Sequence record: OP177727.1
DNA from: Escherichia phage pEC-M2929-1AR.1
Length of the DNA: 64,000 bases
Reading direction: 5' to 3' (one strand)
A program made the translations under genes and the position numbers. Within the stretch, counting starts at the first letter, position 1. Every line of letters begins with the position of its first letter. The notes below the pieces were generated by a model. That model was not told where the DNA came from. It saw only the letters and a list, made by a program, of their open reading frames with translations, and made no database searches. Positions 19,539-54,783 of the stretch are shown piece after piece.

Positions 19539-20112
19539 TTGGGATTTAGTAATAGCTCCAGCGGATATAGAATGGTTAAATTGGTTAAATGCGGTAAGTA
19601 GATCTAATATCAAATTTGATAAGACACATAAAACTGTGCACTATGATATTACGAAATATTTCCCTGATTTTAAAAAGCAATTTGGTGTAGATCCTTATTC
19701 TTTTTGGGATAACCAACATCTATATGATACTATGGGAGTAGTACCTAATAGTACAGATGTTGTTCATCGTATAATTGCAAATGGAGCTAATATATCTATA
19801 GCGAGCCACACTAAGGGTGGACACCTTAGTTCTAAATATAGACACGTAACACGATCTTTAGATAAAGTGGATTTTAGTAGAACATCTGGTAATGGTTTTT
19901 TCGCAACAAAAGAAAAATACTTATTACCTTGCGATGTAACTATTGACGATAGGGCTGAAAATCTTGTCCTGTTTCCAGATGAAACGTTGAAAATATATTT
20001 CAACACTATTTACGAAGATCCATATTTGGAAGAGTTAAAGAAACTTCCTAATGTAATTATCACTGGTTTAGATAATCAGTGGGAAGAAATTGAAAGTATT
20101 TTACTACCTTAA
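19522..20112 (+). CDS. HAD-family 5'(3')-deoxyribonucleotidase-like protein
   Basis: N-terminal CDWDLV (DxD motif) and TIDDRAEN (IDD motif); ATG at 19522 after CAGGAGAAAT; overlaps tdk 3' end. Confidence 0.5.
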   Translation: MRLVCDWDLVIAPADIEWLNWLNAVSRSNIKFDKTHKTVHYDITKYFPDFKKQFGVDPYSFWDNQHLYDTMGVVPNSTDVVHRIIANGANISIASHTKGGHLSSKYRHVTRSLDKVDFSRTSGNGFFATKEKYLLPCDVTIDDRAENLVLFPDETLKIYFNTIYEDPYLEELKKLPNVIITGLDNQWEEIESILLP

Positions 20113-20121
20113 GGAGAAATA

Positions 20122-21093
20122 ATGACAAATTCTATTTCAGCAAAAATTATTGCACACTCTCAAACATCCGAAGGTAAGGATATTGTTACCTTTGAACTTG
20201 AATATCCTCGAATCATTCACTCTGAATTGATGACGCATCGTTTGTTTTCTCGTAATGCCGCATCAAGTCGAGCTATCCCTGTTAAAACCCTGATTGAAAT
20301 GGTACGGCAATCTCCAGCACGTCCTTATCGTTTTGGTGCTAACCAACCAGGTATGCAAGATAAAGGCACAGATCACGATGCCCTGATTGATGCAGGTTAC
20401 ACTGCAAAAGAATGGTGGGACTTGGCTGCGCTAAGTGCTGCACGTTTTGCAGAAGAGTTTGCCCTTGCTGGTTATCATAAACAGGTTGCAAACCGCCTAC
20501 TAGAACCATTTCAGCGTATGAAGACTGTAGTAACCACTACAGAGCTAGAAAACTTCTTGTGGTTGCGCGTAGATGCTGATGCAGATCCTACTATTGAGGC
20601 TCTTGCTAAAGAAATTAAAAAACTGTATGAATCTTCTGAACCATATCTTCTTTTCCCAGGAGAATGGCATACACCTTACGTTAATCGTGATCGAGATCCA
20701 GAAACTGGTATGATCCGTTATTTCTTGGGTGAAACCTTCTCCAACGAGAAAATGTTGACAGAAGATGAAGCAAAAGCTATTTCAGCTTCTTGTTGCGCTC
20801 AGGTAAGTTATCGTAAGTTGAATGATACTAAAGATAAAGCATTGGATATCTATTCTCGTTTGCTGTCTGGACAAAAGGTACATGCATCTCCGTTTGAACA
20901 CCAGGCAACGCCAATGAAAGAAATGGATTTGTCAGGATTAAAACAACAGAAAGGTGGTATTAATATTCCTCCGTTCCCTTCCTCTTGGGAAGAAGGTATT
21001 ACACATATGGATCGTAAACATCGTTTGTGGAGTGGAAACTTCTGTGGTTGGATTCAACATCGTCAACTTTTGACGAACCATACAAAATGGTGA
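20122..21093 (+). CDS. thyX: flavin-dependent thymidylate synthase (ThyX-like)
   Basis: THRLFSRNAASSRA resembles the ThyX RHR-x7-S signature (first Arg replaced); located between tdk and nrdAB. Confidence 0.6.
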   Translation: MTNSISAKIIAHSQTSEGKDIVTFELEYPRIIHSELMTHRLFSRNAASSRAIPVKTLIEMVRQSPARPYRFGANQPGMQDKGTDHDALIDAGYTAKEWWDLAALSAARFAEEFALAGYHKQVANRLLEPFQRMKTVVTTTELENFLWLRVDADADPTIEALAKEIKKLYESSEPYLLFPGEWHTPYVNRDRDPETGMIRYFLGETFSNEKMLTEDEAKAISASCCAQVSYRKLNDTKDKALDIYSRLLSGQKVHASPFEHQATPMKEMDLSGLKQQKGGINIPPFPSSWEEGITHMDRKHRLWSGNFCGWIQHRQLLTNHTKW

Positions 21094-49465: not shown

Positions 49466-49847
49466 GATTTTTAATCATAGTTTCTCGACAGAGATTCCAC
49501 ATATCTGAAGCAACCATAGAAGCATATTCATCGGGGTTGGATTCTGGTAAAATCTCTTTAACTGCTTCTGGTGTCGGGTTGCACATAGCAGGTAGTGCTT
49601 TAAGTGCATCTTCAATAGAGAGCTTCTTACCTTCACTGTAAATAACTTCGTAACCATAGTCATTTACATCTTCTGGAATATCCCGATCCAGGAAACGTAC
49701 AGTAGAGTTATGCATTTTGTTCATAGCTTCACTAACACCAGCGCCACAAAGCTGTGCAACTTCTTCAGAGATACAATCACAAATAACAACTTCGTAAGGT
49801 TTTCCACCATAATACTGCGCATTATATTTGATTTTAACAGACCACAT
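49443..49847 (-). CDS. hypothetical protein (134 aa)
   Basis: ORF track; AAGGAGAG RBS. Confidence 0.5.
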   Translation of the reverse strand: MWSVKIKYNAQYYGGKPYEVVICDCISEEVAQLCGAGVSEAMNKMHNSTVRFLDRDIPEDVNDYGYEVIYSEGKKLSIEDALKALPAMCNPTPEAVKEILPESNPDEYASMVASDMWNLCRETMIKNLVEMAHE

Positions 49848-49902
49848 ATCACTCTCCTTATTTAACGTGTTTTAGCAATTCAATAAAACATAATCTCTTT
49901 CA

Positions 49903-50487
49903 TTACACATCCTCCATTTGGAACATCTCTTTGTGGTTAGAATAGATCTGTTTGAAAATCTTGTCAAGACGTTCATATGATTCTTTGTGCTCTTGTTTCC
50001 ATCCTTGATTTCGGATTTTATCTGCCAGATCATAAGCCTCGCATAAAACTTTGGCAAAATTGGTATTATCTATAGCACAAGCCTCAAAACCCTGAACTAA
50101 ACCCTCTACATCGTACCACGTGTAATCAGAGTTACTAGGAGGCTTTCCTGCGTCGGCTAAACGTTGCCTTACCCATTCAATACGTTTTTCATTCAAATGG
50201 CACTTACCTTCCCTACACTCTTGTTCTAATTCTTCTTTAGATTCGTTGAATGGGTGAAGGACAGGAAGTTCTGCTTTTTGCAATTGCTCCAGGTATTCAC
50301 CTACAATGCGCATAGCTTCACTGTGTGTACACTTTCTGCCTGTGTGCCAATAACGGAAGATACTTTCCGTTAAACAGATACTTTTACTAAACATCGCATT
50401 GTCTTTAACATTCGATCTAGTAACCCAGTCTATATAATATACGTAAAACTGCAATAATTCATAACTGCTTGGTATAATTTTACTCAT
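49903..50487 (-). CDS. member 4 of paralogous early-protein family (194 aa)
   Basis: Shares LLQFY, GLC/ICL and HPFN blocks with 51111-51479, 53260-53634 and 53775-54191. Confidence 0.55.
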   Translation of the reverse strand: MSKIIPSSYELLQFYVYYIDWVTRSNVKDNAMFSKSICLTESIFRYWHTGRKCTHSEAMRIVGEYLEQLQKAELPVLHPFNESKEELEQECREGKCHLNEKRIEWVRQRLADAGKPPSNSDYTWYDVEGLVQGFEACAIDNTNFAKVLCEAYDLADKIRNQGWKQEHKESYERLDKIFKQIYSNHKEMFQMEDV

Positions 50488-50494
50488 GACCTCT

Positions 50495-50665
50495 CCTTAA
50501 TTGTGAAAAATGTTATCGATCAGTATGACTAGTAGTACGAGGATAGAAGGGAGCAGGAATAGAAATCTTAACATTATGTGACGCGTGTGAGAAGCGGCTT
50601 TAGCTCCAGCCGCCAATAAGCCTACTAGTCCTACAATAAAGAGCAGTTGTTCAGGGACACCCATA
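50495..50665 (-). CDS. small membrane protein (about 56 aa)
   Basis: Hand-translated MGVPEQLLFIVGLVGLLAAGAKAAS...; start overlaps upstream stop; below track cutoff. Confidence 0.35.
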
Positions 50666-50890
50666 TTATGGAACACTTGGATACTCCGTAAGTTTGGCTA
50701 ACAGTTGAATATGTGGACACGTGAATTGTTGTCCTGGGTAGCGTGAGCTAATATCATCCAGCAAGGCAATCACAGCATTGTGCAATGCTTCGTAATCTTC
50801 ATAATACACCATTTCTCCATTAGGATCTTCCACAATATCGCAGTGACAAGCGTGAGCAGTACACGCATCCCATTCCAGACGTTTTACCAT
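50666..50890 (-). CDS. small protein sharing CDIV-DP-G-DY block with 45899-46171
   Basis: ORF track; AAGGAGGATTT RBS. Confidence 0.5.
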   Translation of the reverse strand: MVKRLEWDACTAHACHCDIVEDPNGEMVYYEDYEALHNAVIALLDDISSRYPGQQFTCPHIQLLAKLTEYPSVP

Positions 50891-50899
50891 AAATCCTCC

Positions 50900-51148
50900 T
50901 TACTCATACATTTGATATGATACATAACGATTGCAATCAAGTGCGAGAAACTTTTCAGCATTTCTTTGATGCTTGAACACAATACACTGTTCTTTTTTAG
51001 CTTCACTTTCACGAGCTTCTCTTGCCATATGATCACCTAAACGAATGATACCAGAGAATAACACGTATGCAAGAATAAGACAAACAGAGATTGCACAGAA
51101 AGTTTTAAACTTAACCATTATATTCCTCCATATCACGAATACGATCAA
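50900..51148 (-). CDS. small membrane-anchored protein; paralog of 46823-47047
   Basis: ORF track; N-terminal TM helix and shared C-terminal block. Confidence 0.5.
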   Translation of the reverse strand: MIVFVIWRNIMVKFKTFCAISVCLILAYVLFSGIIRLGDHMAREARESEAKKEQCIVFKHQRNAEKFLALDCNRYVSYQMYE

Positions 51149-51479
51149 TCACCCATTGTACACGTTCTTTGTTAAGGTGTGCAATGCCTAACTCTGTTTC
51201 TGTAAAGTAATGTGAGAAATCTGTATTAAATGGGTGTAAATGGTTCAAACCCGCTTTCTTAAACTGTTCCTTCATTTCCTCTCGTACAGAGGCTTGGAGG
51301 TTTGCTACATTCTCAACGTCTTTTATCCAAGCAATATTGTATAAGAAGTCTACGAGACACGTGCAAAGACCATAATGCTTTTTGCTAAAGTTTGTATCTT
51401 CTTGTTCTAACCACCACTCATAAAATTGTAGCAAATAGGGGCTGCTTTTCATGTTACACACTTTATTATTCTCTTGCAT
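51111..51479 (-). CDS. member 3 of paralogous early-protein family (122 aa)
   Basis: Blocks LLQFYEWW, GLCTCLVDF, HPFNTDF, VQWVIDRI; AAGGAGAG RBS. Confidence 0.55.
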   Translation of the reverse strand: MQENNKVCNMKSSPYLLQFYEWWLEQEDTNFSKKHYGLCTCLVDFLYNIAWIKDVENVANLQASVREEMKEQFKKAGLNHLHPFNTDFSHYFTETELGIAHLNKERVQWVIDRIRDMEEYNG

Positions 51480-51488
51480 GATCTCTCC

Positions 51489-51788
51489 TTAATGCCAGTC
51501 TACGATCACTGAATCTACAAAACCCTCTTTGGTGTTTAAAGCATACACCTTACTAAGTCCACGCTCTCGTAGTGCTTCCATAGCAAGATCAATCAAATCC
51601 ACTTGGCGTTTCTTTGCTTGTTCATTTGTCGGATAGTCATCCAAACCGAAAACAGATGGTTTAAATGCCTTGGAGTATTTGCCAGTTTTTGCCTGATCAT
51701 AACAATCCTGAATAACTTCATCAATAGGAAACCACAAGCCTTCCCCGCTTTGCTTTGCAATACAGCGCAGTTTTTCTGTAACAGTCAT
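51489..51788 (-). CDS. hypothetical protein (99 aa)
   Basis: ORF track; GGAGAGGAAG RBS. Confidence 0.5.
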   Translation of the reverse strand: MTVTEKLRCIAKQSGEGLWFPIDEVIQDCYDQAKTGKYSKAFKPSVFGLDDYPTNEQAKKRQVDLIDLAMEALRERGLSKVYALNTKEGFVDSVIVDWH

Positions 51789-52006
51789 TCTTCCTCTCCT
51801 TTCAATTTACACTCAAAGATACCATTCTTAATGTTATCTGTCAAATAAAGGCTATCTTCTATCTCTTCTTTTGTATACACATAAGCCTCCTTTTCCACGT
51901 CTGTCAGACCTTGCATCGGAGCTAGTAGCCACCAGCCCCGCCAGTCAAACATTGGAGACTTATCAGATACACGAAGAATGTATCTATCATTACACATATT
52001 ATACAA
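51785..52006 (-). CDS. hypothetical protein (73 aa)
   Basis: ORF track. Confidence 0.45.
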   Translation of the reverse strand: MYNMCNDRYILRVSDKSPMFDWRGWWLLAPMQGLTDVEKEAYVYTKEEIEDSLYLTDNIKNGIFECKLKGEEE

Positions 52007-52451
52007 TGTTCACATGAATATCCGCAACACCAATAAGAGAATATACTTCAACTACACTCTGTGTACGATCCAGTTTGTAACGTTTTGCCTCTTTTTCAAC
52101 TTCCTCACGGTAGATGGTTTCCATGATTGGAACTCCGTCCACTACGAGCAGGTATTTCTCTTCATGTTTACTTTTTGGTGCTTCCTCTAATACTTCTACA
52201 AAGTATTCAAACTCAGCTTCTGCAAGTAAGGTGTAACACAGAACAAAGTCTCCTTCATTTTGAGTGATAATTTCTTGTTCTCCTGCTAAGGATTGTAAAG
52301 AAGTTACACCATACCAGGCATCCACATCTAATACACGAAAACAGGAATCACCTAAGAAAGAAGCAATCCTGCTATTGCACTCAGACACATTACCAAACTT
52401 ACGGATATAAGATGCGTTTTTAAAACGATACACTTTACCAATTTCAAACAT
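51999..52451 (-). CDS. hypothetical protein (150 aa)
   Basis: ORF track. Confidence 0.5.
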   Translation of the reverse strand: MFEIGKVYRFKNASYIRKFGNVSECNSRIASFLGDSCFRVLDVDAWYGVTSLQSLAGEQEIITQNEGDFVLCYTLLAEAEFEYFVEVLEEAPKSKHEEKYLLVVDGVPIMETIYREEVEKEAKRYKLDRTQSVVEVYSLIGVADIHVNIV

Positions 52452-52459
52452 TACACAAA

Positions 52460-52639
52460 TCCTTATTGTTCAAGAATAAAAGGAATGATTTCACCATAGC
52501 TGTATTGCATGGCATTCACTTCTGCTTCTGCACGTTGTGCTAGTTCTAATGTTGCACAGATCTTGTAAGGAACAGTGCTGCATTGGCTCCAGCCTGGGGT
52601 ATTCTTTGTTACTAAGTACACAGTAGTTTGTTTATCCAT
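52460..52639 (-). CDS. hypothetical protein (about 59 aa)
   Basis: Hand-translated MDKQTTVYLVTKNTPGWSQCSTVPYKICATLELAQRAEAEVNAMQYSYGEIIPFILEQ; AGAGGAAAAGAAG RBS; below track cutoff. Confidence 0.4.
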
Positions 52640-52654
52640 CTTCTTTTCCTCTCT

Positions 52655-52912
52655 TTAAACAGTATATTCGTGTGGAAGGAAAACATAGTCTTCTCCTTCA
52701 ACAACATCAACCACTTCCCAATTCCAGCCAGGTACTTGGCTCATTGTCTTGAATGACACATAAGCAACTCCGCTGTAAGCTATATCGGCATCCAATATAA
52801 GAGGGAAAGCAACGTGTGTCAACCCCAGATAACCACAATTATTTTCAATACACACCTTAATGCTTTTCATGTTATGCTCCATTAAAGACGGGGCGTGTAG
52901 CATTACGTTCAT
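52655..52912 (-). CDS. hypothetical protein (85 aa)
   Basis: ORF track. Confidence 0.45.
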   Translation of the reverse strand: MNVMLHAPSLMEHNMKSIKVCIENNCGYLGLTHVAFPLILDADIAYSGVAYVSFKTMSQVPGWNWEVVDVVEGEDYVFLPHEYTV

Positions 52913-53189
52913 CGTTCACTGTAATAAGGTTTTTCATAACCATAACACCCTGAATATAGCCTAGCCAGCGATGGCGTTTGGTTTCAGACATACCATTACA
53001 CCCATCCTGAATTTCACTCAACATCCACAGTAAGTGGGAAGCACCTGTTTCACTAGTATCTGGATCTTCTACAGAGCTAAGAATTGTTTCATAGCGTTCA
53101 CAAATTTCTGGGTAGAATTCATAATCCTGTTCTACATCTCGCATTTCTCGAATGGAGTGACGATCAATATACAAAGCTAAGGTTTTCAT
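52872..53189 (-). CDS. hypothetical protein (105 aa)
   Basis: ORF track. Confidence 0.45.
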   Translation of the reverse strand: MKTLALYIDRHSIREMRDVEQDYEFYPEICERYETILSSVEDPDTSETGASHLLWMLSEIQDGCNGMSETKRHRWLGYIQGVMVMKNLITVNDERNATRPVFNGA

Positions 53190-53259
53190 TTACACCTCTC
53201 ATTAGTAGTTTGTTATGCGCGGTATTGCATATCTTATGGAACACAGTGTACAGACATTT

Positions 53260-53634
53260 CTACTCAATGCAAGCATTATTTGCATCTTCGATTCTGTCTT
53301 TCACCCATTGAAGACGTAATGTGTTGGTATGACATGCCAAGTCTATACACTCTGAAAGGTAATCCATGTAATCTGTATTGAACGGAAGATAGTAGTCCAG
53401 CCCTGCACATTCAAACTGTTTCCTCATTTCGTATTTCAAACTATCCAACAAACGATCACGCCATCTTCTATCTTCTTCTCTAGTTATCTCACCAACAAAA
53501 TCATCTACATAATCTACCAGACAAACACATAAGCCACTCGTTGTGCGATTCATTGCAGGATGGTTGGCAATCCATGCTTTATAGAATCGTATTAAAGCTG
53601 CACTACTCAACGGAATATTACTTTTCATTATCAC
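53260..53634 (-). CDS. member 2 of paralogous early-protein family (124 aa)
   Basis: Blocks LIRFYKAW, GLCVCLVDY, LPFNTDY, LQWVKDRI. Confidence 0.55.
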   Translation of the reverse strand: MIMKSNIPLSSAALIRFYKAWIANHPAMNRTTSGLCVCLVDYVDDFVGEITREEDRRWRDRLLDSLKYEMRKQFECAGLDYYLPFNTDYMDYLSECIDLACHTNTLRLQWVKDRIEDANNACIE

Positions 53635-53800
53635 CTCCCAACTTAAGTATTCTACCTAACAGATAAAATAATGCCTGTATTGCACTAAGGAACATACACA
53701 AAATTATAAGAAGTCCGAAACCAACAAAACCTGCTTTTATCATTAACCAAACTATCCCAATCAATTCCAACATTCTACACATCCTTACATGCATCGGCAA
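53618..53800 (-). CDS. small membrane protein (about 60 aa)
   Basis: ORF track; hydrophobic helices IGIVWLMIKAGFVGFGLLIILCMFL. Confidence 0.4.
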   Translation of the reverse strand: MPMHVRMCRMLELIGIVWLMIKAGFVGFGLLIILCMFLSAIQALFYLLGRILKLGGDNEK

Positions 53801-54191
53801 TACGATCTTTCACCCACTGCAATCTCTTTGGGTTGGTATGGCAAGAATGTGTCTTACCTTCATCTTCATAACACAGAAGATCATAATTAAAGGGTAGGAA
53901 GGAGGATAACCCAGCACACGTGAATTGCAATTTCATCTCTTCCAGCGTTTTGCTACGAACCATTTTGAAATGTTCTATATCTTCTTGCGTAGGTTTTTTC
54001 TTTGACATAGTGGTTGCCAGGTAATCCATAAGGCAATTACACAAACCAACATTCTCACGATGCATTGAGGAATGATCTTCCATCCATGCTTTGTAAAATT
54101 CTAACAGCAGTGGACTGCTAAGAGGAACACACATATCAGACTCCTTTATAAATTTACGTTTCATGCCACACATCATATAGCATCTTTTCAT
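53775..54191 (-). CDS. member 1 of paralogous early-protein family
   Basis: Blocks LLEFYKAW, GLCNCLMDY, LPFNYDL, LQWVKDRI; exact start uncertain (several in-frame Met). Confidence 0.5.
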   Translation of the reverse strand: MKRCYMMCGMKRKFIKESDMCVPLSSPLLLEFYKAWMEDHSSMHRENVGLCNCLMDYLATTMSKKKPTQEDIEHFKMVRSKTLEEMKLQFTCAGLSSFLPFNYDLLCYEDEGKTHSCHTNPKRLQWVKDRIADACKDV

Positions 54192-54496
54192 CTATTACAA
54201 GAACAGCAACATAGGAACATCATTAATGAAGGATTTAGTATAGGATTTCCCTATCAATTATTCTATATATACCTATTATTTTTAACACACCCCTTTGTAC
54301 ATAATATAGACAAATAAATATCTATGCCACAAAAATTTTCCGGTATACCCGATTTATTTCGACACACCCCCTTTTCATAAGCGTAAAGTCAATAATATCA
54401 ATAACTTGCCGCAAAATACTGCTCGCTTGCGAGAGGTGCTTAACGCGATTTTCAGCACCCCCCGATTTCTGCCGACCGTCTCCCTCAAATATCAAT

Positions 54497-54526
54497 GAGA
54501 ATTATTATCATTTGCATTATCATTCA
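54497..54526. promoter_or_regulatory. Fur-box-like AT-rich palindrome
   Basis: GAGAATTATTATCATTTGCATTATCATT resembles the enterobacterial Fur box GATAATGATAATCATTATC. Confidence 0.35.
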
Positions 54527-54691
54527 ATGACTTATAAGACTTTTGATTATTTTCTGAACAATAAAGGCACTATTTCACGCAGGATCATTTCATTTGGCAA
54601 GGTGTAGATAGATGTTTAGACTTGCCAAGTCATTGATTTACTTAGAATTTATCTGTTTTGTTGGGAATAGTGCCACCCGTGGAAGATAGCT

Positions 54692-54710
54692 GATAATGAT
54701 TATCATTTGC
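54692..54710. promoter_or_regulatory. Fur-box-like palindrome (GATAATGATTATCATTTGC)
   Basis: Matches 16 of 19 positions of the consensus Fur box GATAATGATAATCATTATC by eye. Confidence 0.45.
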
Positions 54711-54783
54711 ATACTTTCTATACTATAAAACGCCCTAAAAATCAAGATAATTCTAATTTATTGCGCTTTTAAAAAAGTAGGCT

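Follow-up and report, generated by a model that had tools for sequence, protein, structure and literature searches.

The 64,000-nucleotide (nt) stretch of Escherichia phage pEC-M2929-1AR.1 analysed here (sequence record OP177727.1; the whole stretch is called the window below) carries four minus-strand genes between positions 49903 and 54191, designated pA, pB, pC and pD, paralogues that diverged long ago and share one autonomous, all-helical domain about 110 amino acids (aa) in length. The function that we favour for them, with somewhat less than even confidence, is that of host-directed accessory effectors acting at the onset of infection, i.e., a panel of proteins each of which would neutralise a different host protein by stoichiometric binding. 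The family is already catalogued yet uncharacterised; what is new is its link to gp3 of phage N4, its link to mosaic EaA-like prophage proteins, its copy-number expansions and the lack of a structural relative.

The common origin of the four genes is evident from pairwise blastp comparisons, in which pA and pB share 45% identity (expect value [E] of 1e-33), pA and pC 39% (3e-25), pB and pC 39% (1e-21), and pC and pD 30% over 114 aa (4e-11), with E-values of 6e-9 for pA against pD and 1e-8 for pB against pD. Overall, identities between the paralogues range from 25 to 46%, and their alignment of about 115 residues contains 23 invariant columns. A paralogous family of four had been proposed in an earlier note on this DNA, and the significance of the matches bears this out: a phmmer and profile search with pA to pD among the 1046 six-frame open reading frames (ORFs) of the window returned only these four and no fifth copy, and an all-against-all blastp comparison of the window revealed no second paralogous family comparable to them. 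The blocks by which the family had been recognised (LLxFY..W, GLCxCL.DY, LPFN.D and QWV.DRI) are all present in pA, pB and pC, but not in this form in pD, which keeps LLQFY, HPFN and EWVRQRL and has SICLTES in place of GLCxCL. The reservation that such blocks might be chance matches of low complexity, and likewise the idea that the ORFs are not genes at all, retains practically no probability in view of E-values down to 1e-33, the 878 homologous cluster representatives described below, ratios of non-synonymous to synonymous substitution (dN/dS) well below 1, and strong Shine-Dalgarno (SD) sequences on all four genes.

The first gene, pA (53775-54134, minus strand, 119 aa), heads the left-end operon and matches a hidden Markov model (HMM) of the family with an E-value of 6e-31 and the PHROGs family phrog_2510 with 5.5e-22; the corresponding values are 7e-30 and 1.2e-24 for pB (53260-53628, minus strand, 122 aa) and 6e-33 and 1.6e-25 for pC (51111-51479, minus strand, 122 aa). 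The four minus-strand ORFs were thus placed correctly in the earlier note, but the starts of pA (54191) and pB (53634) had probably been set too far upstream. Most likely, pA begins at ATG 54134, which has AAGGAG 6 nt upstream, since there is no SD sequence ahead of 54191; the gene is also annotated as 360 bp in record PQ226818 of the 98%-identical phage AMO3598, in agreement with this start. For pB, ATG 53628 with GGGAGG 5 nt upstream is most likely the start rather than GTG 53634, and pC and pD are preceded by TAAGGAGA ahead of 51479 and 50487, respectively. The fourth gene, pD (49903-50487, minus strand), consists of an N-terminal family domain (residues 1-118, 50134-50487; family HMM E-value of 2e-28 for residues 8-116, phrog_2510 2e-17) and, joined to it by a proline-rich linker, a C-terminal extension (residues 119-194, 49903-50133) with only weak matches to phrog_25020 and phrog_24126 and no match in Pfam. 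This 76-residue extra tail makes pD the outlier among the unequal lengths that had been remarked upon. The interleaving with other small genes is equally confirmed by the order on the minus strand, which reads pA, a 51-aa membrane ORF, pB, six small ORFs, pC, a 72-aa membrane ORF, a 74-aa ORF, a 55-aa membrane ORF and pD.

The window is, judging from its nucleotide similarity, a Justusliebigvirus (phi92-like) genome: positions 49500-54500 are 98.3% identical to Escherichia phage vB_EcoM_AMO3598 and 95 to 96% identical to numerous genomes of this genus (Stephanstirmvirinae); in all of them, the genes under the match are annotated as 'hypothetical protein' or similar. In phi92 itself, the direct orthologues of pC and pD are gp006 and gp010 (about 95% nucleotide identity, same order), both annotated as 'conserved hypothetical protein'; phi92 lacks pA, the 51-aa ORF and nearly all of pB, and therefore has two copies, whereas the window has four. 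All four copies are present in five other Justusliebigvirus genomes, in which the intervening genes differ. The individual paralogues are thus conserved as orthologues even though the composition of the set varies, and its accessory nature, as suggested by variable presence among close relatives, is well supported.

The divergence of the family had been described in the earlier note as a sign of diversifying genes, which is not supported by the comparison of orthologues. Pooled Nei-Gojobori dN/dS ratios from ungapped orthologue alignments of 6 to 7 Justusliebigvirus genomes are 0.24 for pA, 0.27 for pB, 0.13 for pC and 0.08 for pD, i.e., in the same range as those of 11 of the 12 tested neighbours (0.04 to 0.32). 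Replacements among orthologues are located at the termini and at positions that vary across the family, and none affects a residue of the conserved motifs. Each paralogue is under purifying selection, like its neighbours; at the depth of 6 to 7 genomes no ongoing diversifying selection is visible, and the divergence between the paralogues is old.

With respect to known families, scans of pA to pD and of fusion proteins against Pfam and NCBIfam yielded no family, and a Pfam scan of 109 diverse family members gave no match at an E-value of 0.01 or better. Searches of PDB sequences with profiles of 4 and 109 sequences returned chance hits only, e.g., parathyroid hormone at an E-value of 0.17, and in a PADLOC scan no defence model was matched. 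Sub-threshold hits to Cas12d and ATG11 in these family scans are noise. The statement of the earlier note that the proteins cannot be assigned to a known domain thus holds for Pfam, NCBIfam and PDB; the proteins are nevertheless no orphans, since they belong to the family of N4 gp3, phi92 gp006/gp010 and PHROG 2510/27059/6418. All four match phrog_2510 with E-values of 2e-17 to 2e-25 (2e-28 to 6e-33 with the family HMM), and pD matches phrog_27059 end to end (7e-140). PHROGs splits the family and assigns no function to these groups, so that membership gives pA to pD a name but explains nothing. A literature search on the PHROG identifiers, phi92 gp006/gp010 and the function of N4 gp3 found nothing relevant.

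The family is large. A profile search of 1.84 billion cluster representatives gave 878 hits at an E-value of at most 1e-3 and 205 at an E-value of at most 1e-10, mostly of 100 to 130 aa, and tblastn against 50,697 phage records located the family in 177 to 223 records with 1 to 9 places per genome. Carriers include Stephanstirmvirinae, N4-like Schitoviridae of Erwinia, Achromobacter, Klebsiella and Pectobacterium, T1-like and Skatevirus siphophages, the T7-like Burkholderia phage JG068, Rhizobium phages and the jumbo phage BcepSaruman. An expanded array is that of Citrobacter phage Tr1, with eight genes and nine domains in 12 kb and no clear one-to-one orthology to pA to pD. Just one of 72,556 plasmid records matches the family, and it looks like a phage-plasmid because it carries phd/doc, a DUF2829 gene and dut. 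By these searches, the domain occurs only in phages and prophages of Proteobacteria.

The relative in a model phage is N4 gp3, which scores 64.6 bits against the family profile and contains GLC, LPFN, Y..EC and CHLNxxRxxW. It shares its domain with pA to pD but differs from them in being single-copy, 104 aa long and only about 30% identical to other members, and N4 is a podovirus using a virion RNA polymerase, unlike the phi92-like source of pA to pD. The gene is the third from the left end and lies between those of the early products gp1/gp2 and RNAPII; gp1, gp2, gp15 and gp16 are early products of N4 (PMC4496689), and from its location between such genes gp3 is very likely early as well. In a metagenomic phage of the N4-like type, two copies stand in tandem between the genes for Gp1/Gp2 and RNA polymerase. 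The distance of the family gene from the left end is 1.9 kb in the N4-like Erwinia phage Kuerle, and in the T7-like JG068 the gene lies at 2.2 kb. The proximity to transcription cofactors in N4-like phages (Gp1, Gp2, RNAPII) could point to a role in the phage's own programme, in which the proteins would act on early-to-middle transcription or on replication as cofactors or regulators, e.g., by binding RNA polymerase or a sigma factor. The annotators of phi92 likewise labelled neighbouring genes as putative regulators, and in two libraries pC matches the sigma-binding protein Crl weakly and below threshold (E-values of 0.04 to 0.08). These scores, 13.1 bits against a cut-off of 27 for Crl (PF07417) in Pfam and 13.9 against 117 in NCBIfam, were judged to be noise, however, and the accessory distribution makes such a role less likely, so that we regard it as improbable.

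The domain also behaves as a module. Tandem members with two or three domains exist (P0025, P0027, P0127 and Tr1 19913-20605), and in one cluster DUF551 is fused N-terminally to the domain, as in phage Av-05. In contrast to pA to pD, which are single-domain proteins apart from the tail of pD, mosaic EaA/Eaa-like proteins of prophages carry the domain as a cassette: in P22-like prophages it forms the centre of mosaic proteins of 250 to 400 aa (e.g., P0160 residues 89-191) and is edged by proline-rich linkers (APPAPAV ... KPAPVVP). The respective genes are located in the early-left operon between erf or Anti-RecBCD_p2 and int, beside Ead/Ea22-like and DUF551 genes; in a Citrobacter prophage, the corresponding region contains a copy with the single domain. 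A blastn search with the prophage version of the domain against E. coli genomes gave no match. In the EaA protein of phage SEN22 (L022 3501-4436), the N-terminal module is the common one, but PF04447 (dATP/dGTP pyrophosphohydrolase) and DUF551 replace the family domain. Because the cassette is swapped with PF04447 and DUF551 in EaA-like proteins, the domain can be considered as an autonomous, exchangeable unit. The label 'EaA protein' itself is only positional, and an equation of EaA with the family was rejected, as SEN22 EaA has no match to the family profile; a relationship to the MazG-like PF04447 and Atd1 was likewise dismissed (hhalign probability of 0.1% for PF04447 against the family). 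As a side observation, P22-like EaA proteins have an N-terminal module of about 45 to 85 residues in common and differ in their central cassettes, which amounts to domain shuffling in one accessory gene slot; an alternative EaA-like version (L002 6001-7209) combines the N4-gp3-like domain with a different tail ending in WNACRAAMLNGGKS.

The prophage region between the recombination genes and int commonly harbours morons and exclusion genes. The accessory location of the mosaic genes in this region would therefore suit proteins of inter-phage competition, which mediate superinfection exclusion or defence against co-infecting phages, and so would the small membrane ORFs directly after pA and pC. 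Such functions are frequent among the early-left accessory genes of temperate phages. Most members of the family occur in strictly virulent phages, however, and are soluble, mildly acidic proteins; Tr1, N4-like phages and prophages do not show the pairing with a membrane ORF, and the PADLOC scan matched no defence model. We accordingly give this explanation very little weight.

The AlphaFold (AF2) model of pC has six helices and a predicted local distance difference test (pLDDT) score of 85.9. In a fold search with this model against PDB no solved fold matched, and a search of BFVD gave only uncharacterised phage homologues. Residues 1-112 of pD are modelled with the same helix order as in pC; the tail is predicted to form three helices of low confidence (pLDDT of about 45 to 65), and the full-length pD model is too poor there for a fold search. 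Conservation was assessed for 109 members that are 25 to 48% identical to pC, and positions are given in pC numbering. Y20, P83, F84 and R106 are invariant, and C39, which is located at the predicted N-terminus of helix 3, is found in 108 of the 109 members. Conservation is at least 97% for L16, F19, G37, L38, W109 and V110, at least 95% for Q72, F73 and L78, at least 91% for E68, S13 and N103, and 72 to 85% for Y91, E94, N85 and H101 (72% for H101). The stretch of residues 43-66, which leads from the end of helix 3 through a loop into the start of helix 4, is hypervariable with many insertions and deletions, and residues 86-99 (helix 5) are also variable. The motif set SS..L..FY, GLC, E...QF..AGL, PFN, Y..E and (C)H.N..R..WV is complete in pA, pB and pC, whereas pD lacks GLC, F73 and Y91. 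A family-wide zinc or metal site was discarded, since among candidate ligands only C39 is near-invariant (C41 is present in 16%, C100 in 53% and H101 in 72% of members); the extra cysteines C41, C75 and C100 of pA and pB are a feature of a sub-branch. DNA mimicry was rejected too, because the isoelectric points of pA to pD, 5.0 to 6.2, are only mildly acidic.

The main rival to a panel of binders emerges from these residues. The domain might be a small thiol-dependent enzyme or a ligand or metal pocket whose paralogues differ in substrate, with C39 as nucleophile or ligand aided by His101, Asn103, Arg106, Glu68 and Gln72. Host proteins, nucleic acids or signalling molecules are conceivable as its target, and such an activity could be compatible with counter-defence. 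Apart from the near-invariant C39, the invariant R106 and Y20, at least 91% conservation of E68, Q72, N103 and S13, and H101 in 72% of members, this idea is favoured by the location of the cysteine at a helix start in the pC model and by the slot in SEN22 EaA, where a real enzyme domain, PF04447, stands in the place of the family domain. We consider it rather unlikely.

For the timing of expression, the position of the genes is informative. The minus-strand block extends from about 42 kb to 54.2 kb according to GC skew, and pA lies on the same strand as this whole block; beyond it, to about 55.9 kb, the DNA is AT-rich (GC content of 0.32) with only short, doubtful ORFs. Within this region, the non-coding, AT-rich stretch 54221-54783 (minus strand, GC content of 0.32) is the homologue of phi92 positions 1-565 (blastn, 88% over 570 nt), i.e., of the annotated left direct terminal repeat (DTR-L, 1-343) plus leader. 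In the alignment, phi92 1-565 runs from window position 54783 down to 54221, and the next match restarts at 53310. Because phi92 DTR-L aligns at 54783-54441, pA is the first gene past the physical left end and heads a minus-strand operon that extends leftwards. The region of pA to pD is almost certainly an early region by this reasoning, and its designation as early in the earlier note is strengthened by homologues from the early region of N4 and from lambdoid prophages, where they lie in the early-left operon. A literature search for a Stephanstirmvirinae transcriptome found nothing relevant.

Overall, a panel of host-directed binders is favoured because the domain occurs in arrays, in tandem-domain proteins and as a cassette, is confined to phages and belongs by position to the first genes expressed. 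Each paralogue would target either a defence effector or some other factor of the host. About 20 conserved residues (SSxxLxxFY, GLC, ExxxQF..AGL, PFN, Y..E and CHxNxxRxxWV) may provide a common scaffold or docking site, and residues 43-66 of pC together with helix 5 (86-99) may determine target specificity. Arrays, tandem proteins and a swappable EaA-like cassette would fit a modular binding unit, and a role in anti-defence or host takeover is plausible in view of where the genes lie, their accessory status and their confinement to phages. The early accessory genes of virulent phages have yielded most of the counter-defence and host-takeover functions found so far, yet most such genes are unannotated. 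With the known proteins Ocr, Ral/Lar and Atd1, pA to pD share only the genomic setting, in that the genes are small, early, close to the end that enters the cell and variably present; there is no similarity in sequence or fold. Atd1, a MazG-like pyrophosphatase (bioRxiv 10.1101/2022.06.09.495361), has been reported in Justusliebigvirus (PMC11724313).

Several points weigh against the proposed binders. The early timing of pA to pD is inferred from position, and a scan for sigma-70-like promoters found 42 sites versus 37 expected, i.e., no overall enrichment. Searches of Pfam, NCBIfam, PDB sequences and folds, and BFVD, which did not include a dedicated anti-defence HMM library, showed no similarity to characterised anti-defence or host-takeover proteins. 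The signature of an arms race, elevated dN/dS among orthologues, is not present. Furthermore, seven polar residues (S13, Y20, C39, E68, Q72, N103 and R106) are more than 90% conserved at only about 30% identity, which seems to exceed the usual need of a pure scaffold and could mark a shared catalytic or ligand site.

A broader reading, which we put forward only with considerable doubt, is that the N4-gp3/phi92-gp006 domain defines a very widespread superfamily of phage effectors, new in structure and directed at the immunity or physiology of the host. Arrays of 2 to 9 deeply diverged copies would then represent panels, in which each copy has a different host target by virtue of a variable helix-3/4 region on a conserved, cysteine-containing core. 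If this were true, the superfamily would be common to N4-like, phi92-like, T1-like, T7-like, Rhizobium and P22-like phages. The family is tractable thanks to 878 cluster representatives, a member in a model phage (N4 gp3), a confident model and copy-number expansions, and it occurs in phages of the BASEL collection such as EmilieFrey and JohannJBalmer. If a function were assigned to a single member, genes could be annotated in hundreds of phage genomes and one EaA-like cassette explained. Thus, pA to pD are good candidates for functional screening, even if nothing about them departs from an expected phage early region.

Among the neighbouring features, two 25-nt direct repeats just upstream of pA (54272-54296 and 54349-54373, minus strand; reverse complements AAAGGGGTGTGTTAAAAATAATAGG and AAGGGGGTGTGTCGAAATAAATCGG) lie 77 bp apart. 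Their motif has two matches versus 0.18 expected and is absent elsewhere in the window, and the repeats could be candidate tandem early promoters or operators. Farther upstream, within the homologue of phi92 DTR-L, a 109-bp segment (54566-54674) is flanked by inverted repeats of about 11 bp (GGCACTATTyC... / ...GrAATAGTGCC). It has one orientation in the window and AMO3598 and the opposite one in phi92, EC_OE_11, ESCO8, VivaForever and EmilieFrey (92 to 93% identity), and is a small inversion or invertible element upstream of the early operon.

Three small hydrophobic ORFs of membrane type lie on the minus strand among the paralogues (53618-53773, 50900-51121 and 50497-50664), two of which begin within a few bases of the stop codons of pA and pC. 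The 51-aa ORF (53618-53773, dN/dS of 0.15), which is not a member of the family, overlaps the stop of pA and the start of pB and reaches a maximum of 2.5 in a 19-residue Kyte-Doolittle window. The notion of a conserved cassette of family gene plus small membrane ORF was abandoned, since it is true only for pA and pC within Justusliebigvirus. The 72-aa ORF (50900-51121, minus strand) overlaps the end of pC and has an N-terminal hydrophobic helix; its pooled dN/dS is 2.3 (6 synonymous versus 54 non-synonymous differences in 10 pairs), whereas all neighbours are below 0.33, and its 3' end is divergent in two relatives. Positive selection, allele exchange or a mis-called frame are possible reasons for the high ratio.

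The early operon, finally, is mosaic at the scale of single genes. Downstream of pB, a 105-aa ORF (52872-53189) is found in the window and AMO3598, a different ORF of 152 aa in EC_OE_11, ESCO8, VivaForever and EmilieFrey, and gp001 (153 aa) in phi92, while a homologue of phi92 gp011 (687 bp, 'Eaa-like') is missing from the window between pD and a 134-aa ORF. Two further minus-strand ORFs have weak matches without confirmation by Pfam, i.e., the 74-aa ORF 50666-50890 to 'Lar-like restriction alleviation protein' (phrog_3592, E-value of 9e-4) and the 150-aa ORF 51999-52451 to 'goF mRNA metabolism modulator' (phrog_2980, E-value of 1e-4).

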